Shown here piece after piece: positions 1,267 through 63,179 of a stretch of 64,000 nt of DNA (positions are counted from its first letter, which is position 1; each line of letters starts with the position of its first letter). The notes under the pieces are model-generated. The model did no database searches and was not told where the DNA came from. It saw nothing but the letters and a program-made list of their open reading frames with translations. This DNA comes from an uncultured Gemmatimonadales bacterium (GTDB lineage Bacteria; Gemmatimonadota; Gemmatimonadetes; Gemmatimonadales; GWC2-71-9), in the NCBI GenBank assembly GCA_963821525.1, contig CAWGED010000019.1:224001-288000 (forward strand), written 5' to 3'. The position numbers were made by a program, and so were the translations under genes.

Positions 1267-2007
1267 GTGGTGACTAAACGCCGCGCCATCGTCCTCCTCT
1301 CCGGCGGACTCGATTCGGCGACCGTGCTCGCCATCGCCAAGGCCGAGGGCTATGACGTCATGGCCTTGAGCTTTCGATACGGCCAACGTCACGCCGTTGA
1401 GTTGAAAGCGGCTCGTGCGGTCGCCCATGCCGCCGGAGTGGCACGGCACCTGGAAGTCGACTTGGACCTCCGTGCGATGGGCGGCTCCGCCCTCACGGCA
1501 GATATCCCGGTTCCAAGAAACCGTTCGATGGACGAGCAGAGCAGCGAGATCCCGGTGACCTACGTGCCGGCCCGCAATACAATCTTCCTGGCCTACGCGC
1601 TCGGCTTCGCCGAGGTAGAAGGAGCGGCGGATCTCTTCCTGGGAGTGAACGCGCTGGACTACAGCGGATACCCAGACTGCCGGCCGGAATACGTCGCCGC
1701 GTTCGAGCGCCTCGCCAATCTCGCGACCAAAGCGGGAGTCGAAGGAACGGCGAAGTTTCGCATCCACACGCCGCTCATTGACCTGTCGAAACGAGAAATC
1801 ATCGCGCGAGGCCTGGCGTTGGGCGTGGATTACAGTCTCACCCACAGCTGCTACGACCCGAGTCCCCATGGAGAGGCCTGTGGCGAGTGCGACTCTTGTC
1901 AGTTAAGGCTCAAAGGGTTCAGGGAGAATGGCATCGAAGACCCAGCATCGTATGTCAGGACCAAAGCGGGAACAGGGAACAGGGAACAGGGAACGGGAAA
2001 TGAGTGA
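1267..2007 (+). CDS. queC: 7-cyano-7-deazaguanine synthase
   Basis: SGGLDS PP-loop, [15 protein letters not shown] and Zn motif CY...CGECDSC. The last ~12 codons come from a heptamer repeat. Confidence 0.95.
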
Positions 2008-2113
2008 GGATCTCAATTCGGAAGAAGCACCTCATCCTGAGGAGCGAAGCGACGAAGGATCTTGTCTCCGGCCGCTGTTCCGGTTCCCTGTTCCCCGTTC
2101 CCGGTTCCCGCTT
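1964..2113. repeat. Inverted heptamer-array element, (GGGAACA)n ... (TGTTCCC)n, with a REP-like core
   Basis: Arms 1964-2000 and 2076-2113 are reverse complements with about 4 mismatches. Core TCATCCTGAGGAGCGAAGCGACGAAGGATCT at 2032-2062. Confidence 0.9.
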
Positions 2114-2120
2114 CTTGGCT

Positions 2121-2762
2121 ATGAGCTACTCGGTCAAAGAGATCTACTACACTCTCCAGGGCGAAGGGATGAACGCCGGCCGGCCGGCGGTCTTCTGTCG
2201 TTTTGCGGGGTGTAACCTGTGGACCGGGCGGGAGAGTGATCGGGCGAGCGCGACTTGCAACTTCTGCGATACCGACTTTGTGGGGACGGACGGTCCGGGT
2301 GGCGGCAAGTTTGCCACGGCGGAAGAGCTGGCTCGGGCGATCGCGGAGAAGTGGCCGGCCAATTCGTCGCCGACGGCACGCAGGATGGCAGTCTGCACCG
2401 GCGGAGAGCCGCTGCTCCAGCTCGACGCGGCCGCGATAGAGGCACTCCATTCACTCGGCTTCCTGGTCGCGGTCGAGTCGAACGGCACCATCATCCCGCC
2501 GCCCGGCCTCGACTGGATCTGTGTAAGCCCCAAGGTGGGTGCCGAACTGGTGCTGCGGTCCGGCAACGAGCTCAAACTGGTGTACCCACAGGATGGGGGC
2601 GAGCCGGAGCAGTATCTCAACCTCGCCTTCGATCACTTCCTGCTGCAGCCGATGGACGGGGCCGAGCGGCAGCGGAATACCGAGCTGGCGCTGGAGTACT
2701 GTCTGCGTCACCCGGAGTGGCGGTTGAGCCTGCAGACCCATAAGATGCTGGGCATCCCCTGA
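2121..2762 (+). CDS. queE: 7-carboxy-7-deazaguanine synthase, CX14CX2C radical-SAM subtype
   Basis: KEIYYTLQGEG, C-NLWTGRESDRASAT-C-NF-C, TGGEPLLQ, SLQTHK. True start is the ATG at 2121; the ORF extension to 2004 is repeat-derived. Confidence 0.95.
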   Translation: MSYSVKEIYYTLQGEGMNAGRPAVFCRFAGCNLWTGRESDRASATCNFCDTDFVGTDGPGGGKFATAEELARAIAEKWPANSSPTARRMAVCTGGEPLLQLDAAAIEALHSLGFLVAVESNGTIIPPPGLDWICVSPKVGAELVLRSGNELKLVYPQDGGEPEQYLNLAFDHFLLQPMDGAERQRNTELALEYCLRHPEWRLSLQTHKMLGIP

Positions 2763-2765
2763 CCC

Positions 2766-3386
2766 ATGTCCACCAGCCACGGTTATTCCGACCGGATCAG
2801 CCACGCCTTCGCCTTCGCGGCGAAGCATCTCCCGCCCCGAGCGCGGCGGGGCAGCGGGGGGCTCCACCTGACCCAGCCGGCCAACGTCGCGGTGATCCTC
2901 GCCCGATACGGCTGCGACGAGATCACGATCATCTCGGGGATCCTGAGCCACCTGGTCAACGAGGCCTCCTACGGGAGCCGAACCCAACTGTCCAACAAGA
3001 TCGCCGAGAAGTTCGGCGCGATGGTCTCCCAGGTGATCGGCGATGTGGCGGAACCGCGATACGATTCGCGGGGACGGGAGCGGAATTGGGAAGTCTGCCG
3101 GATGGACTATCTCGCCAACCTCTCGGCGGCGGGACCCCGCTCCCTCGACATCTGCGCCGCCAACCAGATTCACCTCTGTGGCTCAACCCTCACCGACATC
3201 CGGCGACTGGGCATCGAATATCTCTCGACCTATGCGGAAGCGCCGGCGGAACAGACGCTCTGGTGGTATGGCAGCGTCATCACCGCACTCGAGGCAGTGC
3301 CCAGCGGACCGAGGACCGGGATGCTCCTCGAACTGAAGGGCCTGATTGAGCTCCTGGCCCAGGAATTGGAACAGCAGGGGAGCTGA
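2766..3386 (+). CDS. Mesh1/SpoT-type HD-domain protein with degenerate catalytic motifs
   Basis: AFAFAAKH...RRGSG...P.NVAVILARYGCDE...KFGAMV follows the HD_4/small alarmone hydrolase layout, but HD is replaced by SH. Confidence 0.7.
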   Translation: MSTSHGYSDRISHAFAFAAKHLPPRARRGSGGLHLTQPANVAVILARYGCDEITIISGILSHLVNEASYGSRTQLSNKIAEKFGAMVSQVIGDVAEPRYDSRGRERNWEVCRMDYLANLSAAGPRSLDICAANQIHLCGSTLTDIRRLGIEYLSTYAEAPAEQTLWWYGSVITALEAVPSGPRTGMLLELKGLIELLAQELEQQGS

Positions 3387-3432
3387 CTCGACCACTCCCT
3401 GCCGCCTCCCTCCCCAGTAGACTATCGCTATA

Positions 3433-4788
3433 TTGCACTTACAGATGGACAATTCCCCCACGCTGCCGGCCCTCGCCACGCTGCCCAGTGCCTTCGCTGC
3501 TGCGTGTCGCCATTCCCGTACCGACAGTGAGTTGTTCGAGCGCTGTCGCGAAGCGTTGGTCCGGCGATTCAACAGCGACCGCATCTGGCTCTCCGTAAAC
3601 GCCCCCAATGGTGTCCGACCGGTCGTAGCCGCTACTCCCGAGTGGGTAGCGAGCGCCAAGGAAGTCACCCGGCTCTCCAGCGGACAGACCGAGGTAATAG
3701 TCCACGCCGATCCCGAGCCGGCGAGGCAGATGGCCAGTGCGGCCGTCCCAATCGCCCTTGGCCTCGCGGTCATGGTAGAGCTGCATTCGGTATTGCGGGA
3801 GCGGCAAGAAGCGCTCGAGGATGCGGCATTCCAGCTTCGGGCCCTTCGGCAGGTGGCCCGGCTGCTCTCTTCGGTGCACTCGTCGGAAGAAACCGAGAAT
3901 CTGATTCTCGATTTCATGACCGAAGTGTTCTTCGCATGGTGGGCGTGCCTGTACCGCCCGCAGGCCGATGCCTACATCCCGAAGGTCTTCCGGTCCCTGA
4001 AGGGACCGATGGCGCTCACGCCGATCGATCTGGCGGCACTCGACAAGGAGCTGCCGAGCGGGACGCCAGCGCTGAGCACCGCCGATGCCGCGCTGGCGCG
4101 CCTGCTACCTCCCGATACCCAGCTGGTGGTCACGCTGGATGCTGGCGTCGAACGGCTGGCGGTTCTCGCGCTGGGGCCGCGGCTGCAGGAGCAGGGCTAT
4201 GGCGCACCGGAATACGAATTGGCCGGCACCCTCGCCTTCGCGGCGGCGATCGCGCTGAAGAACGCTCACCTCGTGGAGCAGTTGCAGAGCGCCGCGACCA
4301 CCGATCCGCTGACTTCACTCGGCAACCGGCGTGCGATGGAAGAGCGGCTGGATGCCGAACTGTCGCGCGGCCGCAGGCACTCGCTGCATACCAGCGTCGT
4401 CCTGGTTGACGTAGACCGGTTCAAGCTGGTCAACGACACCCTGGGGCACGCCGCCGGAGACCGTCTGCTGGTCTTGATCGGCCAGATTCTCCAGCACCAG
4501 TGCCGGACGCTCGATGCCGTGGGACGCATGGGAGGGGATGAATTCCTGGTCATCCTGCCCATGACCACCGCCGAGGAGGCGATGGCCTTCATCAGTCGGG
4601 TGCAGGGTAGCGTCGCGGCGCTGGAGCGGAGCCATCCCGAATTCGGCCGCCCCTCGCTCAGCATGGGCATCGCCGAGGCACCGCGGCACGGCGCGAGCCC
4701 GAGCACGCTGCTCGCCGGTGCGGACTCGGCACTGTACCGGGCCAAGCGGGGTGGCCGCAATGCGGTCGAAGTCGCCGAGGATATGTAG
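3433..4788 (+). CDS. GAF-like sensor diguanylate cyclase
   Basis: TDPLTSLGNRR, DVDRFKLVNDTLGHAAGD, intact GGDEF with RxxD I-site (RTLD). Start may be the ATG at 3445. Confidence 0.9.
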   Translation: MHLQMDNSPTLPALATLPSAFAAACRHSRTDSELFERCREALVRRFNSDRIWLSVNAPNGVRPVVAATPEWVASAKEVTRLSSGQTEVIVHADPEPARQMASAAVPIALGLAVMVELHSVLRERQEALEDAAFQLRALRQVARLLSSVHSSEETENLILDFMTEVFFAWWACLYRPQADAYIPKVFRSLKGPMALTPIDLAALDKELPSGTPALSTADAALARLLPPDTQLVVTLDAGVERLAVLALGPRLQEQGYGAPEYELAGTLAFAAAIALKNAHLVEQLQSAATTDPLTSLGNRRAMEERLDAELSRGRRHSLHTSVVLVDVDRFKLVNDTLGHAAGDRLLVLIGQILQHQCRTLDAVGRMGGDEFLVILPMTTAEEAMAFISRVQGSVAALERSHPEFGRPSLSMGIAEAPRHGASPSTLLAGADSALYRAKRGGRNAVEVAEDM

Positions 4789-5340
4789 ATGGCGGATCCC
4801 GAGTTCATCCTCCTGGGCGACGCGCTCTGGCTGGACTTCGCGAACACCGCTCCGTTCCTTCCGCATCGCCACGATCACCTTCCCGACCATGCGGCGTACG
4901 TCCGCTGGAACCGAGCGCTCAAGTTGAGCGCCGAGAGCGATGTCGCCATCGACCGGGTGCGGCGGCTGCGAGATCAGTTGCTGGAGATGGCCCAGTGCCT
5001 CGATGCCGGCCGAACTCCATCGTCGGCGCTGACCCAGGCGATCAACGGTGTGCTCGGCGGACTGGAGGGAACCGAGCAGTTGATCCGGGTGGGCGGAGCC
5101 TGGCGCCTTCGATTTCAGACGATGCGACCCCCTACGCCGGTCGAGGCGATTGCCGCCTCGGCCGCGGCTACGCTGGCCAACCCACTGGCCTACGTGCGCC
5201 GGTGCGCTGGCATTGATTGCGGTCTGTACTTCACCGACCTCACTCCCCAACAGAGCCGTCGTTGGTGCAGCCCGGGGCGTTGCGGCCACCGCGGGCGAGT
5301 TGAACGACGCCGGGTGAGTCGCGCGACCCCGCTGCTATGA
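4789..5340 (+). CDS. CGNR zinc-finger (ABATE) protein
   Basis: LWLDFANT at the N-terminus; RRCAGIDCGLYFTD...RRWCSPGRCGHR. Confidence 0.85.
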   Translation: MADPEFILLGDALWLDFANTAPFLPHRHDHLPDHAAYVRWNRALKLSAESDVAIDRVRRLRDQLLEMAQCLDAGRTPSSALTQAINGVLGGLEGTEQLIRVGGAWRLRFQTMRPPTPVEAIAASAAATLANPLAYVRRCAGIDCGLYFTDLTPQQSRRWCSPGRCGHRGRVERRRVSRATPLL

Positions 5341-5362
5341 CCCTCGTGCGGCAGGCCGCCGC

Positions 5363-7563: not shown

Positions 7564-7596
7564 GCCCAACGAGCAGCGCAGCTTTGCGGGCAACGG

Positions 7597-7629: not shown

Positions 7630-7633
7630 TCGT

Positions 7634-15639: not shown

Positions 15640-15722
15640 TAGCTGTTAAGCTGTTAGCTCGTAAGCTGGCTAGTCGCTCAGCGACGGCTAATGGCTAATA
15701 GCTCACGACTCGCGACTCACGG
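15640..15722. repeat. Degenerate heptamer arrays around a small hairpin
   Basis: TAGCTGT/TAAGCTG units, GTCGC-TCA-GCGAC core, then GGCTAAT x2 and GACTCRC units, between convergent genes. Confidence 0.7.
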
Positions 15723-15726
15723 CCGG

Positions 15727-16968
15727 CTAAGGCTTCTGGCTTACGGCTTCAACCTCCGGCACCGGCGTCTCCCCCGTATGCATCGGAATGTGATCCACGT
15801 GGAAGGCGAGAATGCTCACCAGCGCCACGATGACTGATCCGGCATAGAATGGCGCGCCGTGACCGATGTACTGGAAAAGGTTGGTTGCGAAGAGCGGTCC
15901 GATGATCCGGCTGATCCCCGCGTAGGTCTGCGCCACTCCCATCGTCGTTCCCAGCTCGTCCTTCTCCGAAACTCGTGACATCAGCGCCGTCGTCGAAGGG
16001 AAAAGGAGTGCGGTACCCACCGGCACCAGAGGAATGAGCAGGGCGAGCTGCCAGAGATTGCGGGCCAAGGGGTAGACGGCAAGACCCACGATCAGAAACA
16101 GGGCACCGAGCCGCATTGCGCGCGTCTCCCCAATCCGGTCCACGATCGGCCCCAGCACTGCCACCCGCATCACGATGTTGAGGAGCCCGGTATAGGTGAA
16201 GAAGAAGCCGATGGTCTTCTCGGTGACGCCGTGCTCCTCCTTCAGGAACAGCGCGAGGATAGCGGTGAGCGAGGTGAAGGCCAGCATTCCGATGCCGTAG
16301 ATCCACACATAGCGAGACACCGACCGTGTCGGGTGGCGCAGCACCATCCAGGCCGCGTGCCAGATCGGTTTGCGCTCCCGGGGCTGGGGGCTGGCCGTCG
16401 CCTTCCGGGATTCGGGGAGCCAGCGCCAGGCGAAGTACGCATTCGTCGCACAGAGCGCCGCCGCGATGAATCCGGGCCACGACCGGCCCAGATGAATGGC
16501 GAGCCCGCCGATTACCGGCCCAAATACCACACCCACATTGGTTGATGCCGAGAGCCATCCCAGCGCCTTGGCCCGATCGGAAGGCCGGACAGTGTCCGCC
16601 ACGTAGGCCTGCGCCACGCCCGTCGTCCCGCCGCCCGCGCCCTGAATCAAGCGAGACAGGAACAGCAGCCAGACCGTCGTGGCGAGCCCGAAGACGAGGA
16701 ACGCAATCGCAGAAGCGGTGAGTCCGACGACGAGCGCGGGTCGGCGACCATAGCGATCCGAGACTCGGCCCCACACCGGTGCCGCGATCAATTGGGCGAT
16801 GGAGAAGGCGCCGATCAGCCAGCCGATCATTACCGGTGATGCGCCCAGGTCAGTGGCGTAGAAGGGAAGGATCGGGAGCACGAGCATCAACCCGATCATG
16901 TCCACGAAATTGACCGCGATCAGCACCGAGAGGCGCTTGATCTCGGGAGTCATCCTGGGCCCGGTCAT
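15727..16968 (-). CDS. MFS transporter, TetA/DHA1-like
   Basis: Motif A WGRVSDRYGRRP, SRLIQGAGGG, about 12 TM segments. Confidence 0.9.
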   Translation of the reverse strand: MTGPRMTPEIKRLSVLIAVNFVDMIGLMLVLPILPFYATDLGASPVMIGWLIGAFSIAQLIAAPVWGRVSDRYGRRPALVVGLTASAIAFLVFGLATTVWLLFLSRLIQGAGGGTTGVAQAYVADTVRPSDRAKALGWLSASTNVGVVFGPVIGGLAIHLGRSWPGFIAAALCATNAYFAWRWLPESRKATASPQPRERKPIWHAAWMVLRHPTRSVSRYVWIYGIGMLAFTSLTAILALFLKEEHGVTEKTIGFFFTYTGLLNIVMRVAVLGPIVDRIGETRAMRLGALFLIVGLAVYPLARNLWQLALLIPLVPVGTALLFPSTTALMSRVSEKDELGTTMGVAQTYAGISRIIGPLFATNLFQYIGHGAPFYAGSVIVALVSILAFHVDHIPMHTGETPVPEVEAVSQKP

Positions 16969-19699: not shown

Positions 19700-20763
19700 G
19701 GTTTCCATCTCCCTGAGCCTCGCACGTGCTGATCCCAGTAGGTCATCCAATCGCCGCCTTTAGTGGCGAGCATCTCCCAGTCCATCGGCGCCACCTTCAT
19801 CTCCTGTTCGACATCGGCTACCCATTGGGGAACCGAATCGGCCGGGAGATCGAGTCGAGCGGGTAGCCGAAAGACCTTCCGCGCGGTCAGCAGTTGTCCC
19901 TCGATGCTGCCGACGAACTCGATGTACTCCTTCGCCGCTTCGGGGTGCTTGGCACCGCGCACCAGGGCCACCGCATCATCGATCACCACCGTCCCGCTCG
20001 AGGGAAAGGTGTAGCCGAACGGCATGCCCTTGGAGCGGCTGATCAGGATATCGGGGAGGTCCCACAAGGTCACCAGCCCCTCCTGCCGCGCGAGCTTCTC
20101 GTCGAGCAGTGCCGGATTCAACGCATAAGTTCGGGTTTGCGCGTCGAGCCGGCGCAGCCACGCCATCGCACGAGTGGTGTCGCCCGTCTCCCGGATGCTC
20201 CGCTCGATGATCAGCCCCCAGATCGCGCGCATGGTTCCACTCGCAACCGGATCGCGAATCAGCACTCGATCGTGCCAGCGCGGCGCCAGCACATCGTCCC
20301 AGTCCTTGGGTGCCTCGCTGGCCGACACCGCCGCGGAGTTGTAGGCGATGATGGCCGGCGTTCGGTAGACCGGGAAGTATTGATCTCCTCCGGTCTTCGG
20401 GACCGAGGATGCCCAGCTGGGACGATAGTCGGCCAGGAGTGAATCGGCTGCACCGCGCTGGAAGATGGTCGTGGGCCCGCCAAACCACACGTCGGCCTGG
20501 GGATTCACCTTCTCGAAGCGCAGGCGCTCGAGAATTTCCTGGCTGCCCAGGTCGAGCCAGCGGACGTCGATGTCGGGATGATGCGCTTCGAAAGCGTGCT
20601 CGATCAGAATGAGCTGGTCACGTCCGTGGGGCGAGTAGACGGTGAGCGGAACGCGATGGTCACGCCCACAATGGAGGAGGGCGCCCGACAAGAGAAGCGT
20701 GAGCAGTGAGCGGTGAGAGGTAAGCGGGCTGAATACCCACGCCTTACGGCGCACTGCCGCCAC
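19696..20763 (-). CDS. ABC substrate-binding lipoprotein, Fe3+/AfuA-like cluster
   Basis: Lipobox-like ALLHC, NPQADVWFGG, PKDWDDVL, DPVASGT. Exact start is uncertain. Confidence 0.85.
   Translation of the reverse strand: MAAVRRKAWVFSPLTSHRSLLTLLLSGALLHCGRDHRVPLTVYSPHGRDQLILIEHAFEAHHPDIDVRWLDLGSQEILERLRFEKVNPQADVWFGGPTTIFQRGAADSLLADYRPSWASSVPKTGGDQYFPVYRTPAIIAYNSAAVSASEAPKDWDDVLAPRWHDRVLIRDPVASGTMRAIWGLIIERSIRETGDTTRAMAWLRRLDAQTRTYALNPALLDEKLARQEGLVTLWDLPDILISRSKGMPFGYTFPSSGTVVIDDAVALVRGAKHPEAAKEYIEFVGSIEGQLLTARKVFRLPARLDLPADSVPQWVADVEQEMKVAPMDWEMLATKGGDWMTYWDQHVRGSGRWKP
20699..20726. repeat. Heptamer array inside the SBP signal-peptide coding region
   Basis: GTGAGCA GTGAGCG GTGAGAG GTAAGCG. 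Confidence 0.65.
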
Positions 20764-27654: not shown

Positions 27655-27659
<5 letters not shown>

Positions 27660-27788
27660 GCCTAATGAGCGGGAACGGAGGTGAGCGGTGAACGTAGAAG
27701 CTCCGAAACGAAGAAGCCCTCCGAGAATCTCGGAGGGCTTCGACTATTACGAACTCCCGCTTACTGCTCACCGCTCACAGCTTACGGT
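27655..27788. repeat. Inverted heptamer arms (GTGAGCG / CGCTCAC) around a terminator-like hairpin
   Basis: Hairpin GAAGCCCTCCGAG-AAT-CTCGGAGGGCTTC at 27713-27741; right arm CGCTTAC TGCTCAC CGCTCAC AGCTTAC; lies between convergent genes. Confidence 0.85.
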
Positions 27789-29007: not shown

Positions 29008-29590
29008 ATGAATACGGACCCGGCCTACGAGCTGTTGCGTGAATTTGCCTCTCCGGTGGTCGCGATCACGTCGGCCTGGGGGGGCCGGACCAATGGGATG
29101 ATTTCCGACAGTGCGGTCCGGGCCTCCATTTCGCCCAAGGTTCCTCGGCTGGCGGTGCAGGTTCACAAATGGCACCTGAGCCATGAGTTCATCTGGCAAA
29201 GCGGCCTCTTCACGATCCACCTGCTACACCGCGGAGCAGTTCGACCTGGTGCACCGGCTGGGATTCGTGAGCGGTCGCGACAAGGACAAACTCGCCGAGG
29301 TCCCCCATCGTACCGGAGTCACCGGAGTTCCGGTCCTGGATGATTGCTATGCCGCCTTCGAGTGCCGGGTGATCAACACGATGGACGTGGGGTATGCCAC
29401 GAGCTTCCTGGGCGACGTGGTCCAAACAACGCGGGGCAAAGGCGAGGAGGTCATGACCGCCAGCTTCTTCCGCTCAGCGATGCCGGCGGCCTGGCGAGAC
29501 GAGTTCCTGGCGAACTACCAGATCGCGCAGGAGGTGATCGAGAGGGAGAGGGAGATTAAGGACGTGATTTGGAAAAGGCGTGAGCGGTAA
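29008..29590 (+). CDS. Flavin reductase-like FMN-binding protein (frameshift near 29230)
   Basis: PVVAITS...NGM, then GFVSGRDKDK, GVPVLDDCYAAFECRV. Confidence 0.75.
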
Positions 29591-29780
29591 GCGGTAAGCG
29601 GGAACTGCGTAAGACGTGAGACGTAGGACGTGAGACGTAAGACGTGAGACGTAAGACGTGAGACGTGAGAAGTGAGATGTAAGAAGGAGTTCCGATACGA
29701 CGAAGCCCTCCGTTGGCCACGGAGGGCTTCGGTGTATCGGAACTCCTTCTTACCTCTCACTTCTGACTGCTCACGCCTTT
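29574..29780. repeat. Heptamer array plus 97-nt near-perfect hairpin
   Basis: 11 CGT(A/G)AGA-type units at 29608-29684; stem-loop at 29668-29764; terminal 12-bp inverted repeat AAAGGCGTGAGC/GCTCACGCCTTT. Confidence 0.92.
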
Positions 29781-35801: not shown

Positions 35802-35821
35802 TGGGGAAGGTAGGCGGGGAT

Positions 35822-35928
35822 GGCGGGAGGGCGGTAGGGCGATCAGGCGGTAGGGGTTGTGGGTGGTGGGTGGTCGATGGTCGATGGTCTTGTGCTTACC
35901 GCCTTACCGCCCTACCGCCTTCCCGTCC
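35822..35928. repeat. Inverted octamer arms (GGCGGTAG / CTACCGCC) with an inner TGGTCGA heptamer run
   Basis: 35822-35853 and 35895-35928 are imperfect reverse complements. Confidence 0.8.
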
Positions 35929-37539
35929 AACCCCGAAAGACACCCCTCATCCCGCGACACCCGGAATCGAAGCGGAAAGTTCCCCGATTCGGCGCCCACC
36001 CACGTCAAAACCGCGGGGCATTGCTTCCGAACCGCTTCCAGATCCCGAATGATCGGGCTTCCGGGAACTCCCACGACGACCACGCTTATCGAGTCCTCCA
36101 GGATGTGATGGGCCAGGTAGCGGCCCGGCACTTCGAAGGCCGAGGGGAGCACCGCGCTCTCCGCCGGATTGGCCGGCACGGTCTTGCGGCCCGTGTAGAG
36201 GTAGATAGCAGCCGGATAGTCGATGAGGAGGTGATCCTGCTCACCGGTATTCGCCATGACCCAGCGTGAAGCTGAAGCGAGATAGCGGCTGGTGAGTGGC
36301 AGCAGATGACTCGGTGAATAGAACGGGGCGGGCTTGCGATCGGCGAAGGCCGCTGAGCGCCTCGCGATGCACCGTCACCTGTCGAAGAAGTACCAGACCG
36401 GTCGCGAGACCGAGGACGGGAGCGAACCAGCGAGTTCGAACCGCCGGGAGTCGCTCGAAACTGACGCAGGCCGCGAGGCCGAGAAAAGGTAACGCCGAGA
36501 GGAGCAGGCGATCCTGGGCGAAGGGCCATGCCAGGATGACCGCAACACCGCCCAGGGCGGATCCCGCGAGCAACGGATAGCGTCGCAACGCAGCAAGGGC
36601 TCCTCCCAGCAGGACGAGCAGCAGGAGACCGACCAGGACTCGTCCCCCGCTCGCATTCCCGATCAAGTACGGGCCCAGCTGCTCCAGGTACTTCGCCGCA
36701 TTCGAGGCCACGCCTAACACGACCGACTTGAGCGATCCCACGACGCCGGCTCCGGCAAACCATCCCAGGTAGCCACCCTCGTCCGGCAGATCAGCAACGG
36801 GACCGCGATGGACCATGACGACGTGCAGAAGTTTCCACGCGATCAGGGGCCCAAGTGCAGCCACGGTCACGATTGCGCGATGCGCTGCACTTCGTTTCCG
36901 GAGCCAGGCCCCCGCGAGCACCGCGACCACCAGCACGATGGCCTGGGTGCGGAAGAGGGTGGTGACGGAGGCGAGGAGGGCGGAGAGGGCGGTTCGGCGG
37001 TTCGGCGGTTCGGCGGCGATCACACTCGACGGCTCCGCGTGATACCAGCTCACCAGAACTGCGGCCCAGCCCAACATGAACCAGGGTTCCGACAACGGAA
37101 TGGTGAAGTACTGAATCGACGCGTCGAACAGGAGCGGTGCGACCACAAACGCACCGAGGAGAATCCGGGGAATTCCGAATCTTTCGCGTCCAAGCCACCA
37201 GAGCAGTCCCGCGACGGCCCCGATGACAATCGGATGGAGCAGGCTGACCAGACGCTGCACTCCGTCTACCGAACCGGTCAACCGCCACAATAGGGCAAGA
37301 AGAACCGGGAAGCCGGGGGGATACTTCACCTGCACCGGATCACCCACCAGGTGGAGCGAGTGATAGCCGTGGCCTTCGGCCAGCGACTTACCGAGGACGG
37401 TGTAGACCCCGTCGTCATTCCAGGCTCCCACCAGCAACGCGGTGGAAAGGCTGGCGGCGAGATAGATGGTCGCGATCAGCACCCCGGCGAGGAGGGCTTC
37501 GCGACCGGGTGAGGGAGAGATTGATGGCCTTTCAGGCAC
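35904..37539 (-). CDS. GT-C-like (ArnT/PMT) membrane glycosyltransferase (frameshift near 36355)
   Basis: WNDDGVY...KYPPGFP...LSEPWF and many TM segments; C-terminus continues in ORF 35904..36257. Confidence 0.65.
36988..37011. repeat. (GGCGGTTC)3 frame-preserving repeat inside a CDS
   Basis: Three perfect octamers totalling 24 bp. Confidence 0.8.
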
Positions 37540-37591
37540 GGTGGATAATAGCCTTCCCGCCTCTAGGGGCATGGGGTACACTTCCCGCCCT

Positions 37592-42326: not shown

Positions 42327-42489
42327 GACGGGAGACGGGAGACGGGAGACGGGAGACGGGAGACGGGAGACGGGAGACGGGAGCACCGCGAGGGTACGGC
42401 TACTGCTGCGCAAATAGCCATTGGCTGCGTCCTGGTAGCAGCTAATGGCTAATTGCTAACAGCTTATGGCTTACGGCCTACAGCTTATG
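42327..42489. repeat. (GACGGGA)8 perfect array plus seven degenerate GCTWAYR heptamers
   Basis: 42327-42382 starts right after the thrC stop; 42441-42489 includes the peroxiredoxin stop. Confidence 0.92.
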
Positions 42490-43060
42490 GCGTTCCCTTC
42501 ACCGAGTCGACCGCCGCACCCAGCGCGACGTACGCCTGCGGATCCACCTCCTGGAACTCCGCCGCGACGTAACTGATCTTGCCACCCGGAGCGATCACGT
42601 AGAGGGTCCGGTTGTCCAGCTTGTACTTGCTATCGAAGGCCCCGTAGAGCTTGCCGACCTTGCCATCGGGATCGCTCAGGAACCGGAACGGATAGTTGCG
42701 ATCCTTGGCCCACGAGGCGAGCTCGGTGATCGGATCTACACTCACCGCCAGCAGCGTCACCTTTTTTCCATCGTTAAACAGCTTCGCGTACTGATCACGG
42801 TACGCGTCCATTTGGATGGTTCAGCCGCTGGTCCGTGCCTTGTAGAAGAAGGCAATCACCACGGTCTGATCCTTCAGGTCAGTAAGCCGCACCGAATCAG
42901 GCTGAACGCCGTCGCGCGTGGCGCTCTGCAGAGTGAAATCGGGGGCGGGATCGCCCACCTTGAGCGGACCGGATTGCTGAGCCGGCACCACCGACGTCGC
43001 GCCCAGTAGCAATCCTCCTACCAGGAGGAAACGAGTCAAACGGGAATTACGCTCTGCCAT
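42485..43060 (-). CDS. Exported BCP/AhpC-TSA peroxiredoxin, probable selenoprotein
   Basis: Two in-frame ORFs joined by TGA at 42821-42823: FFYKARTSG-U-TIQMDAYRD aligns with the Prx motif FYPKxxTxGCT. Confidence 0.85.
42785..42806 (-). promoter_or_regulatory. Candidate bacterial SECIS hairpin
   Basis: CGCGUAC-CGUGAUCA-GUACGCG starting 14 nt after the UGA; GU at loop positions 2-3. Confidence 0.7.
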
Positions 43061-54651: not shown

Positions 54652-55856
54652 TCAGTGTCGAGTAAGAGGACTGGGGACTGAGGACCGAGTGAAGCAAATT
54701 TAATCAAATTTTGGGCCAACTCATCCCTTCGTCGCCGCGGCTCCCGCCGGCACACGACGCCCTCTGCCGTCTCCCGTACCAGCTGGTCCACCACGGCCTT
54801 CAGGTCACCAGTCTTCTGGAACGTCGCAATCTGGCGGTCGGCGCTGGTGCCTTCGCCCAGGATCCGGAAGGCGTACTCCACCTCCTTCCGGCTGCCCAGG
54901 TCATCCAACACGTCATCGACGAACCATTCGAGGAGCTCCTTGATCAGCTCCCGGGCGGGCAATTCCTGCCGCTTTCCGAAGTCGATCAGCTTGCCGTCCA
55001 ACCCGTAGCGAATCGCCCGCCACTTGTTCTCGTCGATCAGGGCCTGCGGGTAGAGCCGGAAGGTGAGGTTGTCCCGCCGCAGCTTCCACAGCTTCGCGAT
55101 GATAGCCTGGAAGATGGCGCCGATGCACACCGCCTCGTCCACCCTGGTGCAGACGTCGCACACCCGGAATTCCAGGGTCGGATAGCTCCAGCTGGGGCGG
55201 ACGTCCCACCAGAGCTTCGAGGCGTTGGGAATGCAATTGGTGCTGACCATCGTGTTCACCAGGCCCTCGAACTCGGCCCAGGATGCGAGCGTCCGCGGGA
55301 TGCCGGTGCGGGGGAAGTCCCTGAACACGATGCTGCGGTACGATTTGAGGCCAGTCATCCGCCCCATCCAGAAGGGCGAGCTGGTGGAGAGCGCGAGGAC
55401 GTGGGGCAGGAAATAGCGCGACACGTTCATCGCATCGATCAGGAATTCCTTGTCTTCGATCCCGATGTGGACGTGGGTGCCGAAGATCAGCAGGCGCTGC
55501 GCCAGGTCCTGGAGATCTTCCTTCACTCCGATGTAGCGGTCGAGCGGAGTAATCTTCTGCTGCATCCAGGAGGAAAACGGATGACTTCCCGCCGCGGCGA
55601 CCACCAATCCCTGCTTCGCGGCGAGGCCCATCACCAGTTTGCGGAGCCGGACCAGCTCTTCGCGCACCTCCGCGGGTGTGCGGCAGACCTTGGTCCCCAC
55701 TTCGACCATCGACTGGTGCAGTTCCGGCTTGACCTCCCCCAGCACCATCGAGTCTTCGTTCAGGATCTCGGTAATGTACGACCGAAGCTCCCGGGTCTCG
55801 GGGTCGATGATCTGGTATTCCTCTTCGATGCCGATGGTGAGGGTTGGCTCTGCCAT
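54648..55856 (-). CDS. Carboxylate-amine ligase (GCS2/YbdK family)
   Basis: [36 protein letters not shown]. True stop is probably 54721-54723, with an indel causing read-through. Confidence 0.92.
54666..54686. repeat. Short GAGGACT heptamer array
   Basis: GAGGACT GGGGACT GAGGACC. Confidence 0.5.
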
Positions 55857-55867: not shown

Positions 55868-55947
55868 TCGATGGTCGATGGTCGATGGTCAATGGTCGAT
55901 TGGAGTAGTCGTTGAAGGACCATCGGACTACCGACTATCGACTATCG
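55868..55947. repeat. Inverted heptamer arms (TCGATGG)n / (GACTATC)n
   Basis: About five units on the left and four on the right, inside an operon junction. Confidence 0.88.
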
Positions 55948-55954
55948 CCTTCCC

Positions 55955-57301: not shown

Positions 57302-57327
57302 GGTCAGTATCAGGTGAGACCGTCGAC

Positions 57328-58275
57328 TCAGTACTTCAACCTATTCCTCCCCTTAAGAAACATCTTGTCCCATTTCAAATCCTTCACCTGTCGCCTCGGC
57401 TTCTTGGCCAGCGCGATCGCGAGGTCGGTCATGTGCTGAACCACCCAGTCGAAATAGGTCGGGGTCAGGGAGTTGATGTCCATGTCCGGGGCTGGATTCA
57501 TGAAGTCGATGGCGTACGGGACCCCGTCCCGAATGGCGAATTCGATCGAGTTCATGTCGTAACCCAGGGCGCGACAGATCGTCAGGGCGTCGTTGATCAC
57601 CCGGGTCCGCAGCTGCGGCGCCAGGAAGTCGTCCCCCGGGATGTAGCGGCGTTCCCTGGGATCGTACTTGATCGGGAGGATGTCTTCCTGTCCGATGCAG
57701 AGGCAGCGTACGAACTCGTCCCAGTCGATGAATTCCTGGACGATCATCGTGAGCAGGCCGGACTGATCGTACCGGGCGATCAGCTCCTCCAGCGAGCGGC
57801 AGACGTGGACCTCCTTCCACCCGCCGCCGTGGGCATCCTTGAGGATGCAGGGCATCCCGATGTTGCGCGCGATGCCCTCCCAATCGAGAGGGAACTGGAG
57901 GTTGCGCAGGCTCTCGTCGTGCTTGATGCCGGGGATGTAGTCCTTGTTGGGCAGGAGCATCGTCTTCGGACTGGCCAGGCCGAGCTTGGTGATGAGCGAG
58001 GCGCCGAAGAACTTGTCGTCCGCGGTCCACATGAAGGGATTGTTGATGACCGGGACGCCCTGCAGCACCGCGTGCTTCAGATAGCTCCGGTAGAACGGCA
58101 CCTCGTGGGAGATGCGGTCGATCAACACATCATAGGGAACCGGATCGGTCATGCTCAGGGCGCCGGTCAAGACATACTCGGCGACCACGCCCGCGTTCCG
58201 CTGACTCACCGCTTCCATGAATGCCGGCGGGAACGACCATTCCCGACCTACGAAGAGACCAATTCGTTTCGTCAT
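57328..58275 (-). CDS. RimK/GshB-like ATP-grasp ligase
   Basis: DRISHE, INNPF...DDKF, LKDAHGGGW, VQEFI, IDFMNPAPD. Confidence 0.82.
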   Translation of the reverse strand: MTKRIGLFVGREWSFPPAFMEAVSQRNAGVVAEYVLTGALSMTDPVPYDVLIDRISHEVPFYRSYLKHAVLQGVPVINNPFMWTADDKFFGASLITKLGLASPKTMLLPNKDYIPGIKHDESLRNLQFPLDWEGIARNIGMPCILKDAHGGGWKEVHVCRSLEELIARYDQSGLLTMIVQEFIDWDEFVRCLCIGQEDILPIKYDPRERRYIPGDDFLAPQLRTRVINDALTICRALGYDMNSIEFAIRDGVPYAIDFMNPAPDMDINSLTPTYFDWVVQHMTDLAIALAKKPRRQVKDLKWDKMFLKGRNRLKY

Positions 58276-58322
58276 TGCCTGGTTGTGTGTGTTAGGCGGC
58301 TAGGGGGTCCGGCCATGTAATT

Positions 58323-58354
58323 GCCGAGCCGCCGAGCCGCGGTGCCGCCGAGCC
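58323..58354. repeat. (GCCGAGCC)4 octamer array
   Basis: Three exact units and one variant directly after the esterase stop. Confidence 0.7.
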
Positions 58355-58355
58355 G

Positions 58356-59075
58356 CTAGTCGTGCCCGCCGATGTAGGTCCGCACCATGTCCTCCCAATG
58401 GGGCCAGTCGTGGGCGTGACCGTCCCAGATGCGCAGCGCGTTCCCGATGCCCTTGCCCCACAAGAGCGCGGAGAACTCCCGGTTGTTATCGCATACCGGG
58501 TCGCCGCCTCCGATCGCGAAAATGATGTCCTGCCGGCGGAAGGCGTCGAGCCGGAGAGGATCATGCTCGTGGCGCATGAAGTCCATGGGATTGCAGCGAT
58601 ACAGATTGGCGTCGCTATACCCACCGATCAGGCGCTTGAGGTCGTAGAGGCCGCTCATGCCAAGGATCCGATTCACCGACTCCGGATAGCGCAGGCCGAA
58701 GGCGGCGGCATGGGTCGCCCCCAGGCTGGCACCGGTCGTGATGACGTATGCGTTGCTGTTCTTGCTCGCCGTAAAAGGGAGCACCTCGTCCCGAACATAG
58801 CTGTAGTACTGCAGGTGGACCCACGCGCGATGCCCGGCGTCGACCGCCTCGTTGCCCCAGTTCTCGTGATGCGGCTGGTCGAGGCAGAACAGCTGAATCC
58901 AGCCCTGGTCGATGTGGTCCTGCAGTACCTGGTGCATCCGCCGGTCCGGCCACTCCGAGTGGGTCCCCATGCTGGTCGGGAACGCCAGCACCCGGGCACC
59001 GGCGTGGCCGATCACCTGCAGGGTCATCTCGCGGCCCAGCACGGGGGAATGCCAGGTGTGGATTTCGTGGTTCAA
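58356..59075 (-). CDS. Alpha/beta-hydrolase (putative esterase family)
   Basis: SPVLGREM, FPTSMG, GASLG nucleophile elbow, HDWPHW; TTG start. Confidence 0.88.
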   Translation of the reverse strand: MNHEIHTWHSPVLGREMTLQVIGHAGARVLAFPTSMGTHSEWPDRRMHQVLQDHIDQGWIQLFCLDQPHHENWGNEAVDAGHRAWVHLQYYSYVRDEVLPFTASKNSNAYVITTGASLGATHAAAFGLRYPESVNRILGMSGLYDLKRLIGGYSDANLYRCNPMDFMRHEHDPLRLDAFRRQDIIFAIGGGDPVCDNNREFSALLWGKGIGNALRIWDGHAHDWPHWEDMVRTYIGGHD

Positions 59076-59250
59076 GAGGGTCTTGGGTCGTGAGTCTTGG
59101 GTCTTGGGTCAACGTCTCTAGCGATGTCGCTGGGGGGTGGAGAATCTACTCGGCATCTCAGCTTCAGGCATCCCCCAGAGGCATAGACCCAAGACGTCAT
59201 GGCTCAAGACTCACGACCCACGACCCATGACCCACGACCAACGACCCTCT
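59075..59250. repeat. Inverted heptamer arms (GGGTCTT)n / (GACCCAC)n filling a divergent intergenic region
   Basis: Ends AGAGGGTC and GACCCTCT are perfect complements; inner CTGGGGG/CCCCCAG pair. Confidence 0.9.
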
Positions 59251-59261
59251 ACCTTTCGCCC

Positions 59262-61214
59262 ATGCCCCAACCCATCCGCTTCATCTTCGGACTCCACCTG
59301 CATCAGCCGGTGGGGAATTTCGGGTCCGTCTTCAGCCAGCACTTGGACGAGGTCTACCTGCCCTTCCTGCAGAAGGTGGACGAGCGGGAGTTCTTCCCCC
59401 TGGTGCTCCACATCTCCGGCCCCCTGCTGGAGTGGCTGGAATCGAACGGCAAAGCCTATCTCGATATGGTCGGCCGTCTGGTTGATGCCGGCCGGCTGGA
59501 ATTGCTGTGCGCCGGCATGTACGAACCGGTCCTCGCTGCTCTCCCTCGGCAGGACCGCATCGAGCAGATCGGCTGGATGCGGGAGAAGCTCAGGAAACGG
59601 TTCGGGATCGATGCGCGGGGGCTCTGGCTCACCGAGCGGGTGTGGGAACCGGAGCTTGCTGCCGACTTGGCCGACGCCGGGGTACAGTATGCCCTGGTGG
59701 ATGACCGCCATTTCCTGGTGACCGGGTTTGAGCGAAACCAGCTGCACGCGCCGTGGATGACCGAGAGCGACGGCCGGCGAATCGCCCTGTTCCCGATTGA
59801 CGAGCGGCTCCGCTACCTCATCCCGTTCCGGCCTCCGGCCGAAACCGCCACCTATCTCCGAGAGCTGGCGAACGAAGGTCACCGCATGGCGGTGCTGGCG
59901 GACGACGGGGAGAAGTTCGGCGGCTGGCCCGGCACCCGCGAATGGGTCTACGAGAAGGGATGGCTGGATCAGTTCGTGACCACGATCTCGGCGCTGGTTG
60001 ATAACGGCGAGGTAGTGCTCTCGACCTTCGCCGAGACTCTTCCGGCAGTGCCGATCGCGGGGCTCGCCTACCTGCCAACCGCCTCCTATCGGGAGATGGA
60101 GGGTTGGTCGCTGCCGCCACTCGCGGCGCAGCGGCTCATCAACCTCGAGACCGAGTTGGGAGAGGAGCGGTTGTCGGGACCCGAGAGCGGGCTGCTCCGG
60201 GGCTCGCACTGGCTCAACTTCCTGGTCAAGTACGTCGAGGCCAACCGGATGCACAAGAAGATGCAGGCACTATCCCTGCTCTGCCGCGATCGAGGCGATC
60301 CCGCGGCAGCCCGCGTCGCCATTGGACGGGCCCAGTGCAACGACGCCTACTGGCACGGCGTCTTCGGCGGACTGTATCTCCCCCACCTGCGTGATGTGAT
60401 CTGGCGCGAGCTTGCGATTGCGGAGAGGGCGCTGCGTGTCCGGGAACCGCTGGAAGCCGAGGTCTTCGACATCGACGCGGATGGCCATCGGGAGATCTGG
60501 GTCCACAGCTCCGACTTCAGCGCGATCGTGAGTCCCGACCGTGGCGGAGGCATCGAGGAGTTCACGCTTTTCGGATCGGGGATCAACTTCGCGAACACGC
60601 TGACTCGGCGGAGGGAAGCCTACCACCTGGTAGTCGCGAAGCCAGGAAACCACGGTGAGGGCGACGAAAAAGGGACGCCGAGCATTCACGATCTGGAGAG
60701 CCGCATCCGGCTGAATGAACTGCCGCCGGTTGACGCGCTTCCGCGGGTGTTGCTGCACGAGCGGGGACTCCCGTCGGCGCTGGATCAAGAGAGTTACGAG
60801 CGAGGCGACTTCGACAGCCTGGATGTACCGGGTGACGGTCCCCTTCCCTACACCATCGAATCCTCGGCGGATCGCCTGATGCTGAGCTTCAAACTGGTTG
60901 AGACCGGGATCACGACCTTCGAGAAACACTACAGCTTTGCGCCGGACGGCAGACTCACGGCGACCTACCGCTGGTCGCCGGCCGCCCTCGCACCCGAAGG
61001 ATTGTTTGCCGTGGAAGTGTCGTATCGGGGGCCGCTCGAAATCACCGCCAGCCCGGCCGCAGACACCTGGAGCTTCGACATCACGACGGTGGCGAAATCA
61101 GAGAAGGGACTGGAAGAAACGGTGCAGGGCCGGTCGGTCACGTTCCGGTGGCCCGGCAACGTGGGGAGTGCGATGCTGGAGTTGTTGCCGGCAAGCGGAG
61201 TCGAAAGTCGATAG
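59262..61214 (+). CDS. GH57 alpha-amylase / 4-alpha-glucanotransferase (DUF1925/1926 type)
   Basis: HLHQPVGNF, WLTERVWE, DDGEKFGGWP, QCNDAYWHGVFGGLYLPHLR. Confidence 0.9.
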   Translation: MPQPIRFIFGLHLHQPVGNFGSVFSQHLDEVYLPFLQKVDEREFFPLVLHISGPLLEWLESNGKAYLDMVGRLVDAGRLELLCAGMYEPVLAALPRQDRIEQIGWMREKLRKRFGIDARGLWLTERVWEPELAADLADAGVQYALVDDRHFLVTGFERNQLHAPWMTESDGRRIALFPIDERLRYLIPFRPPAETATYLRELANEGHRMAVLADDGEKFGGWPGTREWVYEKGWLDQFVTTISALVDNGEVVLSTFAETLPAVPIAGLAYLPTASYREMEGWSLPPLAAQRLINLETELGEERLSGPESGLLRGSHWLNFLVKYVEANRMHKKMQALSLLCRDRGDPAAARVAIGRAQCNDAYWHGVFGGLYLPHLRDVIWRELAIAERALRVREPLEAEVFDIDADGHREIWVHSSDFSAIVSPDRGGGIEEFTLFGSGINFANTLTRRREAYHLVVAKPGNHGEGDEKGTPSIHDLESRIRLNELPPVDALPRVLLHERGLPSALDQESYERGDFDSLDVPGDGPLPYTIESSADRLMLSFKLVETGITTFEKHYSFAPDGRLTATYRWSPAALAPEGLFAVEVSYRGPLEITASPAADTWSFDITTVAKSEKGLEETVQGRSVTFRWPGNVGSAMLELLPASGVESR

Positions 61215-61233
61215 TCGAAAGTCAAAAGACGAT
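61197..61233. repeat. AGTCGAA heptamer array (G-rich arm)
   Basis: AGTCGAA AGTCGAT AGTCGAA AGTCAAA; contains the GH57 stop codon. Confidence 0.8.
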
Positions 61234-61263
61234 TGACACCGACCAGCGACCCTGCTGCCTCAG

Positions 61264-62979
61264 CTACTCGATGAAGTCCACCCAACCGGCTTCATTGGTG
61301 ACGACCGCAACGGTCCCTGCGGCGTTGACTCCGACCCGGCGCGGCGTTCCCCAGTATTGAGCAGAGTCCGCTGCTGTAAGGTTGTCCGGTCGAGAATCTC
61401 GATGGTCGCAAAAGTTTCGACCACGATGAGCTCGTTGGTTGTGACGCCCAGGCCGAAGCCAGGACCGGCCAACGGGACGCTCTTCACCTGCAGGCCCGAA
61501 CTGATGTTCCACACCTGCAGGTAGCCCGACTCGTTGGAGACGTAGAGTTCGGTTCCCGCAGGGGACAGCCCCAGACCCATGGGAGAACCATTTGTCATGT
61601 AGGTGCGGATTATCGTGCGGGTTACCGTGTTCACCTCCACTGCCGTGCCCGCCCCCGCCATGCTCACGTACAGCCGAGGCAACGTGGGATGAACCACCAT
61701 GAAGTTCGCGAAGCTTGCCGGGCAGCGAGTCCGTGAGTTGGTTGGTCGAGGCGTCGGCGAAGTACAGTCTCTCGTTCGTCCCGATGAAAATCGTCTTGTT
61801 GTCTGGGGACACCCCGACGGAGTAGGGGGTACTCCCAAGACCAGTGATTGGAGGAAGAACCAGATTGGTGGCCACATCAATCACCCCAACGGCGCCGTCG
61901 TTGTTCAGGGCTACATAGGCCCGGGTACCCGCGGGTTGATCGCCATGCCAAGTGGGAGGTTCCCCACCGTCACCGGCGATCGGAGAGTGTAGCCCGGGAG
62001 GGTTCCCCGTACGAAGCTCGACGAGTTCAACAGCCCCACGTATGTCTCGCCACCGGGCCCGACGGCGACTCCATAGGGATTTCCGGCGACCGGAGTCGTC
62101 GCTGCCCGGACCCCCTGCATCCCCGTGGTAACGAACACCGGGACCAAAAAGGTGAGACTGCCGCTCTTTGCGTTAAGGCTACCTGTGCCGGTACCGCCGA
62201 TTGAGGTAACCAACCCCGCCGCCGACAGGGAGAAGAGCGAAGGATCATGATTGACGTAGGTTACCGACCGCCGCGCAATTGGATTCCCCAGACTGTCCAG
62301 TACCTCAGACACGAGTTGTTTGGTTCCCCTGGCCGAATCACCACGCTGCTGGGCGTGGTCGGAACGCTCGTGGCAACGAGATAAACGGTGACCGGCACCT
62401 TGATTTGAATGGCGTCCACCACGACGGTGATCGTGGCGGTACCGGTCGGCCCGACGGCGATCACCTCTCCAGGACTGGCTGACTGTTACAACTGATGGCT
62501 TGCTGGACGTGAAGCTGAACAGTCCGACGTTGAAAACGGGATTGCCGAGGAAATCTGTGGCATCAAACGACAGGATCCTGGTGGTGTTCCGGTGCATCTG
62601 AATCGAGGTGGGCGTTACGGTGAGGTGCATCACCCGTTGCCGGACCAGTACCCGAACCGTATGAGTGAGACCATCATCTTCTGCCGTAATGAACGTGCTT
62701 CCCAGCGGCCCCACCGAGGTCATCAGGCCCGTAGCCGTGATGGTGACGACACTTGGGTTGTCGGAAGAGAACCTCACCGACCGGCCGGGGATGGAACGCC
62801 CAGCGGCATCCACTACGGTTCCCGTGAGCTGCAGGGTGAGCCCCCCTGTCGATGACCGGCTGATTGGGAATGAGAATGATGTCAGCTGGCACCCGGACTC
62901 AGGTGCTATCGCCCCCGCAGGACACGCCCAGGGCGAGGAGCGCAAGCAGACACAAGACCGCCCGCGTCGAACGAGTCAT
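61264..62979 (-). pseudogene. Lipoprotein with Big_2 Ig-like repeats and a YncE/YVTN beta-propeller, multiply frameshifted
   Basis: MTRSTRAVLCLLALLALGVSC lipobox; SSDNPSVVTI and TSSKPSVVTV Ig repeats; GNPYGVAV and GSPMGLGLSP blades spread over several frames. Confidence 0.65.
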
Positions 62980-63086
62980 TGCCGGATTTTCTTGTAGAGA
63001 GGGGTTTCGCGAATCTACTTCGGACTTGGGAAAACGGTAGCGGTGCCTAATAATTTGGCGGAGTGTTCAAAAGTTGACGGTATTCT

Positions 63087-63179
63087 AGTCGAGAGTCAAA
63101 AAGTCGTGGGTCTTGAGTCTCCCAAACTGAAGACTCAAGACCCACGACTCATGACTTTAGACTACCGACTCTCGACTCC
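63087..63179. repeat. Inverted heptamer arms with a perfect 19-bp inner stem
   Basis: AGTCGTGGGTCTTGAGTCT (63102-63120) pairs with AGACTCAAGACCCACGACT (63131-63149). Confidence 0.9.

Follow-up and report, generated by a model that had tools for sequence, protein, structure and literature searches.

Inverted period-7/8 repeat arms at gene junctions of a Gemmatimonadales genome and their probable link to cassettes encoding TIGR02436 four-helix-bundle proteins

The stretch of 64,000 nucleotides analysed here (the window), from an uncultured Gemmatimonadales bacterium, carries tandem arrays of seven- and eight-base units at one gene junction after another, which raises the question of where such arrays come from and what fixes their orientation. 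A first-pass annotation had named about 14 array sites, and all 14 hold a period-7/8 array (11 pass a stricter scan; 15640, 27655 and 54666 appear in TRF at a score of at least 30). It had also described the arrays as inverted arms. By eye, two matching arms are present at eight of the 14 sites; the two arms at 42327 differ in unit, one of the two at 58323 is clear and the other weak, and the sites at 20699, 36988, 54666 and 61197 consist mostly of a single arm. The elements of the window are listed in Table 1; an Rfam scan of the window gave no match, and promoter and terminator scans were empty.

Table 1. Repeat arms and associated features of the window, with their state in related genomes (G000 is the genome analysed here).
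Feature	Position	Strand	Remarks
Forward arm, period 7	1968..2000	+	Within queC 3' tail
Half of a REP-like palindrome from a separate family	2029..2066	.	In loop; approximate ends; the family also brackets a small GIY-YIG gene elsewhere
Reverse arm	2080..2114	-	Matches 1968-2000; both arms carry another unit in G004
Decayed two-arm element	15641..15745	.	Convergent junction
Forward arm and short reverse remnant	20699..20727	+	Not seen in G004 or G016
Forward arm	27655..27700	+	Overlaps acnA stop codon; both arms of this junction have other units in G001 and G002
Terminator-like host hairpin	27713..27741	.	Hairpin at this position in 7/7 relatives, including two genera without arms
Reverse arm	27757..27785	-	Adjoins stop of RpoD-family sigma gene
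Two forward arms, stacked	29580..29684	+	
Hairpin and reverse arm	29701..29775	.	Hairpin 29701-29731; reverse arm ~29748-29775
Nested element	35817..35925	.	Forward and reverse arms of period 8; inner forward arms of period 7
Two-gene stretch	35926..37547	.	Bounded by repeat of reverse-arm end; in G000 and G003, missing from G001, G004 and G016
Single period-8 arm	36988-37016		Inside two-gene stretch
Mismatched-arm element	42327..42491	.	3' of thrC; forward 42327-42383, reverse 42441-42491
Forward arm	54666..54689	+	Reverse arm of G003 and G004 missing here
Two-arm element	55868..55950	.	Both arms another unit in G003
Weak forward arm with a reverse arm of period 8	58295..58356	.	Reverse arm at 58323-58356; G003 carries another unit
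Two arms	59078..59247	.	Around conserved divergent intergenic region
Forward arm	61199..61228	+	Overlaps stop of GH57 gene
1.85-kb stretch, Ig-like domains	61232..63085	-	Apparently frameshifted; missing from G003 and G004; bounded by ~20-base direct repeat of forward arm
Two-arm element	63087..63184	.	

The genome as a whole contains 791 arrays of period 7 and 153 of period 8; an order-6 Markov sequence of the same length yields 5 and 2, respectively, and TRF concurs with this enrichment. The earlier statement that the period is always 7 or 8 is nonetheless too narrow, because period-9 arrays also exceed the control (104 vs 8); periods 5, 10 and 11 yielded 5, 17 and 11 arrays. The proposed placement at gene junctions extends to the entire genome, where 812 of 905 period-7/8 arrays lie at junctions as defined by a hexamer-based gene caller. 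Likewise, the G-rich arm stands 5' in 439 of the 549 partnered arrays (89 opposite, 21 even), a polarity that is clearly non-random but that merely approximates an orientation rule specific to each unit, and the order of arms is forward-reverse at 248 and reverse-forward at only 4 among 445 junctions. The arrays are also present in short-read assemblies: Logan contigs from three of four runs span the element at 27655, and one contig bridges that at 29574 with a 45-base skip, all of these runs deriving from relatives and not from the strain itself. Together with the junctions of relatives, such contigs rule out an assembly artefact.

The link with four-helix-bundle genes suggested in that annotation is supported. 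The TIGR02436 profile has 13 matches in the genome, 12 of them over the curated cut-off, and all 12 of these genes lie inside period-7/8 arms (here termed cassettes), the nearest being located some 2 kb beyond the end of the window. The predicted fold of a congener protein (pLDDT 96.7) superimposes on 2gsc, the structure of its closest solved relative XCC0516, with a Z of 18.9 and an rmsd of 0.9. XCC0516 has been stated to be a homopentamer (PMC4990558) and 2gsc holds five chains; by likeness, the cassette proteins would be pentameric. They are under purifying selection, with dN/dS of 0.02-0.35 in 18 of 25 computable protein pairs. At one junction, cassettes with the same unit encode proteins 75-99% identical and those with clearly different units, as labelled by eye, proteins 50-69% identical, while all labelled rows of a 16-row clade (SH-aLRT 95 in a quick tree of 81 of 82 rows, one row of less than 60 aa being left out) have period 8/9. 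The array unit follows the protein lineage. One cassette has been duplicated recently, as G003 carries near-identical cassettes 7 kb apart with unrelated flanks, each directly after a host stop. Two other candidate pairs were discarded: a 98%-identical pair taken for a move between loci, whose two sites in G000 turned out to be a single junction present in duplicate, and the C9/C4 pair, which is an assembly overlap.

The gene-less arrays share their vocabulary with these cassettes. Only 116 of 1172 possible heptamers are used as distinct period-7 units (the top 40 accounting for 86%), the commonest contributes 59 of the 791 arrays, and many units lack G-runs. The first-pass description of the arms as unconserved in sequence is not supported, because both units and arm ends are family-specific. 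A cassette unit, from a set of 131, is found in 664 of the 779 gene-less period-7 arrays, and congener cassettes alone cover 611, whereas a letter-shuffled vocabulary covers 121 on average and 263 at most. In the reciprocal comparison, the cassettes of G011, which belongs to another genus, cover 52 of the 66 G011 arrays and 185 of the 779 in G000, and G000's own cassettes cover 343 and only 4, respectively; another genus thus has its own cassette-matched vocabulary. Among 475 paired arms, 345 show the cassette orientation (52 of them C-rich) and none the opposite, with 40 ambiguous and 90 without a cassette unit. Since units and orientation match cassette ends, the gene-less arms are likely to be offspring of cassettes, and we hold it very probable that the two are linked. 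Units are not enriched near their own cassette (6 vs 4.7 expected within 20 kb), so that a cassette acting near its own gene is not supported.

The arms typically span about 4-5 units, and their inner ends favour one phase (modal class 33% vs 23% simulated, maximum 25%). Across 102 arm pairs, the order of unit variants matched better than shuffled in 48 and worse in 40, and arms score their own partner no higher than a same-unit arm elsewhere (4.76 vs 4.78). The two arms of an element are therefore independent and not mirror copies, and a template switch by which one arm is copied from its partner is not supported. Nor is a scheme in which the newest arm is innermost, since purity is no higher in the inner than in the outer arms of nested elements (0.89 vs 0.91, n=90). 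A check for target-site duplications gave one possible 5-base repeat.

We propose that gene-less arms are non-autonomous cassette derivatives, produced by inward copying at the two edges of an intergenic break, and give this reading, like the copying step itself, an even chance. An intergenic break or gap would leave DNA ends, each of which would be extended by copying a cassette arm; the cognate four-helix-bundle protein, every one recognising its own unit, is the predicted guide, and host enzymes would carry out the synthesis. Arm polarity would be fixed because both ends copy inward. Complete copying would install a cassette, aborted copying would leave two independent arms around a unique loop, and selection would limit survivors to gene boundaries. 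The earlier suggestion of a dedicated mechanism encoded outside the window stands as regards the source, but no enzyme was identified: no polymerase, nuclease or recombinase is tied to the arms in the genomes searched, and Ku is present in 23 of 31 genomes irrespective of arrays. GxxExxY proteins and small GIY-YIG nucleases were dismissed as partners, given that they are missing from G007, a 5.6-kb sample of which shows arrays. Several points count against the copying reading. Linkage alone could make the unit follow the clade, one unit type adjoins proteins just 28-30% alike, period-8 arrays are less well covered by cassette units (63/149), the arms are more than one letter apart at 91 of 257 two-arm junctions, and later slippage could have erased a mirrored order.

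Cassette-filled and gene-less forms alternate at the same junctions among congeners, and at acnA|rpoD and C19:164.5k a single break fails to explain the outcome, because both arms change around a kept host hairpin. Between G000 and G003 (n=25), 12 elements are the same, 5 differ in both arms and 8 in one, and co-switching is not significant (Fisher p 0.19). An array lies at the breakpoint of 15 of 32 large indels, as compared with 74 of 322 wide junctions. Since this comparison set four windows against two, a role of arms as gene-gain hot spots is only suggestive; host genes between matching arms do not seem to be mobile passengers, occupying the same place in congeners in the two regions tested. 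The leading alternative, which we regard as unlikely, is that chance seeds grow into arms by local slippage and that these persist because a four-helix-bundle protein useful to the host binds them at gene boundaries, with no cassette copying. Purifying selection on the proteins, the arm length of 4-5 units, the hairpins kept between changing arms and the single changes that link many units are all in line with slippage. It does not account for the replacement of whole elements with new loops in four of five double switches between genomes about 94% alike, for the cassette-like outer ends of gene-less arms (17/32 in one family) or for the local sharing of units (27/157 arrays less than 2 kb apart share near units vs 8% shuffled). 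Nor does it fit the cassette carriers without dispersed arrays: G016 has 4 cassette genes but no array in 120 kb, and G025 has 8 but none in 65 kb, which implies in turn that the cassette gene is not sufficient.

Less probable still is that the arms are maintained for their role in RNA, as stems (terminators, RNase III sites or mRNA stabilisers) like those of 23S rRNA intervening sequences (IVS), the heptamer periodicity being a by-product. Five of the seven window elements folded have z below -4.6, arrays lie close to stops and favour convergent over divergent junctions (128/392 vs 56/503), and the Coxiella IVS combines heptamers with a stem and is cleaved by RNase III (PMC4990558). ORF-bearing IVS (S23p) encode proteins of the family discussed here, between inverted ends that contain tandem heptamers. 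The cassettes described here, by contrast, lie between protein-coding host genes and not in an rRNA gene, mostly head-on to the host gene (the downstream neighbour is antisense in 46 of 49 callable cases among 56 loci), are under purifying selection and are outnumbered by gene-less arms. Long RNA stems as a maintained feature, as first suggested, are not supported, because the arms are not mirror copies, divergent junctions are bracketed as well and G·U pairs are not in excess over A·C (144 vs 146 at co-directional junctions, 136 vs 147 at cassettes), even if the positive control for G·U is itself weak (31 vs 19, p 0.12). Stems would also require neither cassette units nor a fixed orientation, and only one arm type is present at 187 of the 445 junctions. 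The RNA data sets screened had word shares of at most 0.11 and yielded no evidence.

A classical MITE or REPIN, in which an unlinked transposase moves the whole arm-loop-arm and takes the four-helix-bundle gene along as a passenger, is also improbable. Defined arm ends, the cassette duplication and four Y1 transposase genes in the genome are compatible with it, but these genes have their own non-heptamer palindromes, the unit follows the protein lineage and, unlike in a MITE, whole elements do not recur as copies: 55 of 80 loops have no second copy, and the remainder match nested arms, a different palindrome family or contig ends that are duplicated. REPIN-RAYT systems (bioRxiv 10.1101/2021.07.10.451892) likewise comprise inverted extragenic doublets by the hundred, with spacers that vary, and gene groups flanked by their own repeat. 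Here, however, the gene encodes a four-helix bundle instead of an HUH/Y1 tyrosine transposase, the arms are tandem 7/8-mers and not short palindromes, and cassettes are replaced at a junction and duplicated, in contrast to the single-copy, static state described for RAYTs.

That a reverse transcriptase paired with an Avd-like protein writes the units, telomerase-style, is very improbable: independent arms, fixed polarity and the fold shared with Avd of diversity-generating retroelements (Z 14.7 to 4dwl and 14.6 to 8ub7; rmsd 1.7 over 102 residues) would suit it, but identity is 12%, host genes flank the cassettes, and RVT_1 was not found in the array-rich G000, G001, G003, G004 and G011 (two of them 98-100% complete, G000 81%), yet is present in array-poor G016. 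Distant reverse transcriptase classes could escape an RVT_1 search.

Heptamer repeats themselves have been published. In Xanthomonas and Nostoc they are intergenic and of about four units, and Xanthomonas genomes hold 70-75 inverted pairs each, with the G-rich strand directly after stops and the antisense directly before starts (Rehm et al. 2015, PMC4692102, which also cites the cyanobacterial STRR repeats). The arrays reported here are likewise dispersed, intergenic and of stop- and start-linked polarity. The Xanthomonas work, however, describes one consensus unit, read as a G-quadruplex, whereas dozens of units are used here, each tied to a cassette and many without G-runs, with no dominant G4-forming consensus. 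In the supplement of PMC4692102, one repeat copy and the start of XCC0516 overlap, whereas the main text of that paper makes no mention of 'four helix'. No four-helix passages were found in PMC10392669 and PMC4679880, and titles and abstract openings yielded no paper tying heptamer repeats to TIGR02436 proteins; within that literature, the link to this protein family was not found.

Copying from cassettes would thus join two old puzzles, the excess of heptamer repeats in bacteria and the unknown function of S23p/TIGR02436 proteins, and provide a testable source for the former. If the REPIN-like reading is true, an element population of that kind is maintained without a cognate transposase, and roughly one junction in eight is affected, with gene ends, terminators and gene gain reshaped. 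More tentatively, the pentamers may be specificity factors of a widespread DNA-writing system, free of transposase and reverse transcriptase, each recognising a 7-, 8- or 9-base unit of its own and directing its inward-facing insertion on the two sides of intergenic sites. Such a system would account for the heptamer excess across bacteria and supply a natural library of protein-unit pairs. The genus offers a dozen such pairs per genome and hundreds of gene-less sites in each, and binding specificity is therefore testable as a cross-matrix and repeat birth by a break-repair assay.

A period-7 or period-8 array is present at each of the 14 window sites named in the first-pass annotation. A periodicity scan of the whole 4.33-Mb assembly (81% complete) yielded 791 arrays of period 7, where an order-6 Markov control gave 5; the corresponding figures are 153 and 2 for period 8, and 104 and 8 for period 9. 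The arrays are real rather than chance products. After merging of the period-7 and period-8 arrays (n=905), 812 lie at gene junctions as defined by in-house gene calls, occupying 547 of 4498 junctions, and 63% of those whose nearest landmark is a stop codon lie within 10 bases of it. A reverse-complement partner is found within 1.5 kb for 549 of the 905, versus 73 in a swapped-neighbourhood control, and of the 354 elements left after collapsing, 296 have a loop shorter than 150 bases. Contigs from soil and rhizosphere DNA runs (four runs, four studies) contain related forms, differing in copy number, of the two window elements tested.

The genome carries 12 four-helix-bundle genes above the TIGR02436 cut-off, none of them inside the window, and each is bracketed by inverted arms of its own unit, forming a cassette; the four congeners carry 12 such genes apiece. 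The dominant units comprise 116 out of 1172 possible heptamers. Excluding arrays near the genome's own cassettes, cassette-arm units of the genus account for 664 of the remaining 779 period-7 arrays, all gene-less, and units from congener cassettes only for 611, compared with a mean of 121 and a maximum of 263 for letter-shuffled vocabularies; period-8 arrays are less well covered (63/149). In G011, which belongs to another genus, 52 of 66 arrays are explained by its own 48 cassette units and 4 by the 38 of the genome under study, 343 of whose 779 arrays are explained by its own units versus 185 by those of G011; when the vocabulary of the genus is pooled (131 units), it accounts for 39 of these 66 as well. 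The match between cassettes and gene-less arrays is lineage-specific. Among 475 paired arms, 345 follow the cassette orientation and none the opposite one, 40 being ambiguous and 90 having no cassette unit. The earlier statement that the G-rich arm is 5' holds only approximately and is a side effect, because 52 C-rich forward arms also obey the orientation that their unit has in cassettes.

Arm length peaks at 4-4.5 units, with detection biased to longer arms (cassette-arm median ~4.6), and arm ends are phased and specific to the family. Both arms share the unit in 166 of 257 two-arm elements, yet the order of variants is not common to the two, and an arm pairs with its own partner no better than with a same-unit arm elsewhere. 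No G·U excess was detected among arm mismatches on the mRNA strand, the positive control being weak. Loop sequences are unique, save where they hold nested arms or members of another family of palindromes. Strong folding is predicted to be possible because of how the elements are built, and shows no function.

Between congeners, both arms often switch unit jointly. At the acnA-rpoD junction they did so around a kept host hairpin, which G016 and G009, from other genera, possess without arms; a new loop is commoner, occurring in four of five double switches. Some gene-less junctions are cassette-filled in congeners, with the same or a different unit, and the converse is seen for one cassette junction just beyond the window. 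The congener G003 harbors two near-identical cassettes at unrelated junctions (dS 0.11). Out to 5-10 kb, junctions near each other have units in common at about twice the chance rate, and two window stretches absent from relatives have direct repeats of arm sequence at their bounds. The likeness listed below for the left half of acnA-rpoD in G003 suggests local conversion.

Features in the window and on other contigs (C) of the genome under study (G000)
Feature	Location	Remark
acnA-rpoD junction	window ~27655-27785	two arms round host hairpin
Left half of acnA-rpoD	window 27655-27741	G003 version resembles G000 element 2 kb downstream (29580-29731)
Cassette junction	G000:C19:290240-290807	2 kb beyond window; G003 counterpart gene-less, with unit of neighbouring cassette 1.6 kb away
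Ig-like domain gene	window 61232-63085	strain-specific, apparently frameshifted; flanked by direct repeats of arm
MFS transporter	window 15727-16968	like tetracycline efflux families; scores far under their cut-offs
GxxExxY (PF13366) genes	G000:C5:948723, C4:251119, C8:120644	own inverted arms, period-9-like units at 2/3; architecture as in cassettes, other protein
Small solitary GIY-YIG genes	G000:C12:227017, C5:845162, C8:283051	bracketed by REP-like palindromes
GIY-YIG palindrome family	e.g. window 2029-2066	dispersed; often fills heptamer-element loops, also at sites with four-helix-bundle gene in congeners
Very GC-rich stretches	G000:C8:33267, 41346	may be foreign to assembly
Duplicated contig ends	C12/C13, C9/C4	overlaps

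With units labelled by eye, protein identity at a given junction is 75-99% for identical units, 71-77% for near-variants and 50-69% for clearly different ones; it is 36-46% at the duplicated C11/C5 junction, and AcnA identity is 96-97% in three of four congeners. In a quick tree, period-8/9 units fill one 16-row clade, one other period-8 unit (two rows) falling outside it; linkage alone could make unit and clade coincide. The cassette proteins are under purifying selection and their genes lie mostly head-on to the 3' end of a host gene. A set of 78 distant loci spans many phyla; at 62 of them the best repeat lying no more than 300 bases away is a period-7 array, and a strict pairing control, inflated by related loci, was beaten at 20 only. 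The closest solved relative is XCC0516 (E 2e-22; Z 18.9), followed by BT_0352 (Z 17.3) and Avd (Z 14.7). In the supplement to Rehm et al. (PMC4692102), a four-unit Xanthomonas heptamer copy overlaps the XCC0516 start and is flagged there as having no inverted partner.

It seems reasonable to postulate that the arms on the two sides are written independently, invariably in the inward direction, off a template common with the cassette, and that the four-helix-bundle protein may choose its own unit. The simplest route would be two-ended copying at a DNA break or gap, with the inverted arms of the cassette itself as template, giving a new cassette if finished and a gene-less pair if aborted. We infer this route, and the mechanism is uncertain: it would account for polarity, vocabulary, arm independence, unique loops and slot exchange, but does not explain kept hairpins, unless through two coordinated events, or cassette carriers such as G016 and G025 that are devoid of dispersed arrays in the DNA sampled. 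Four sampled genomes without a TIGR02436 gene hold 2 arrays in ~263 kb, while members of the genus have 18-36 for every 100 kb. Searches of the genome and its relatives found no enzyme behind the arms; the first-pass annotation had inferred one encoded outside the window.

The arrays are a variant of known repeat systems. Their working mode is like that of a REPIN-RAYT population (10.1101/2021.07.10.451892), from which they differ in having neither HUH transposase nor palindromic unit; 23S rRNA intervening sequences (PMC4990558) have the gene in common with the cassettes but differ in location, and the Xanthomonas heptamers, as documented in PMC4692102, match the gene-less form. No link between heptamer repeats and TIGR02436 proteins was found in the literature searched, PMC4679880 and PMC10392669 included, though subscription journals and supplements could contain one. 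The link between this protein and heptamer arrays is, as far as searched, unpublished, and it is directly testable.
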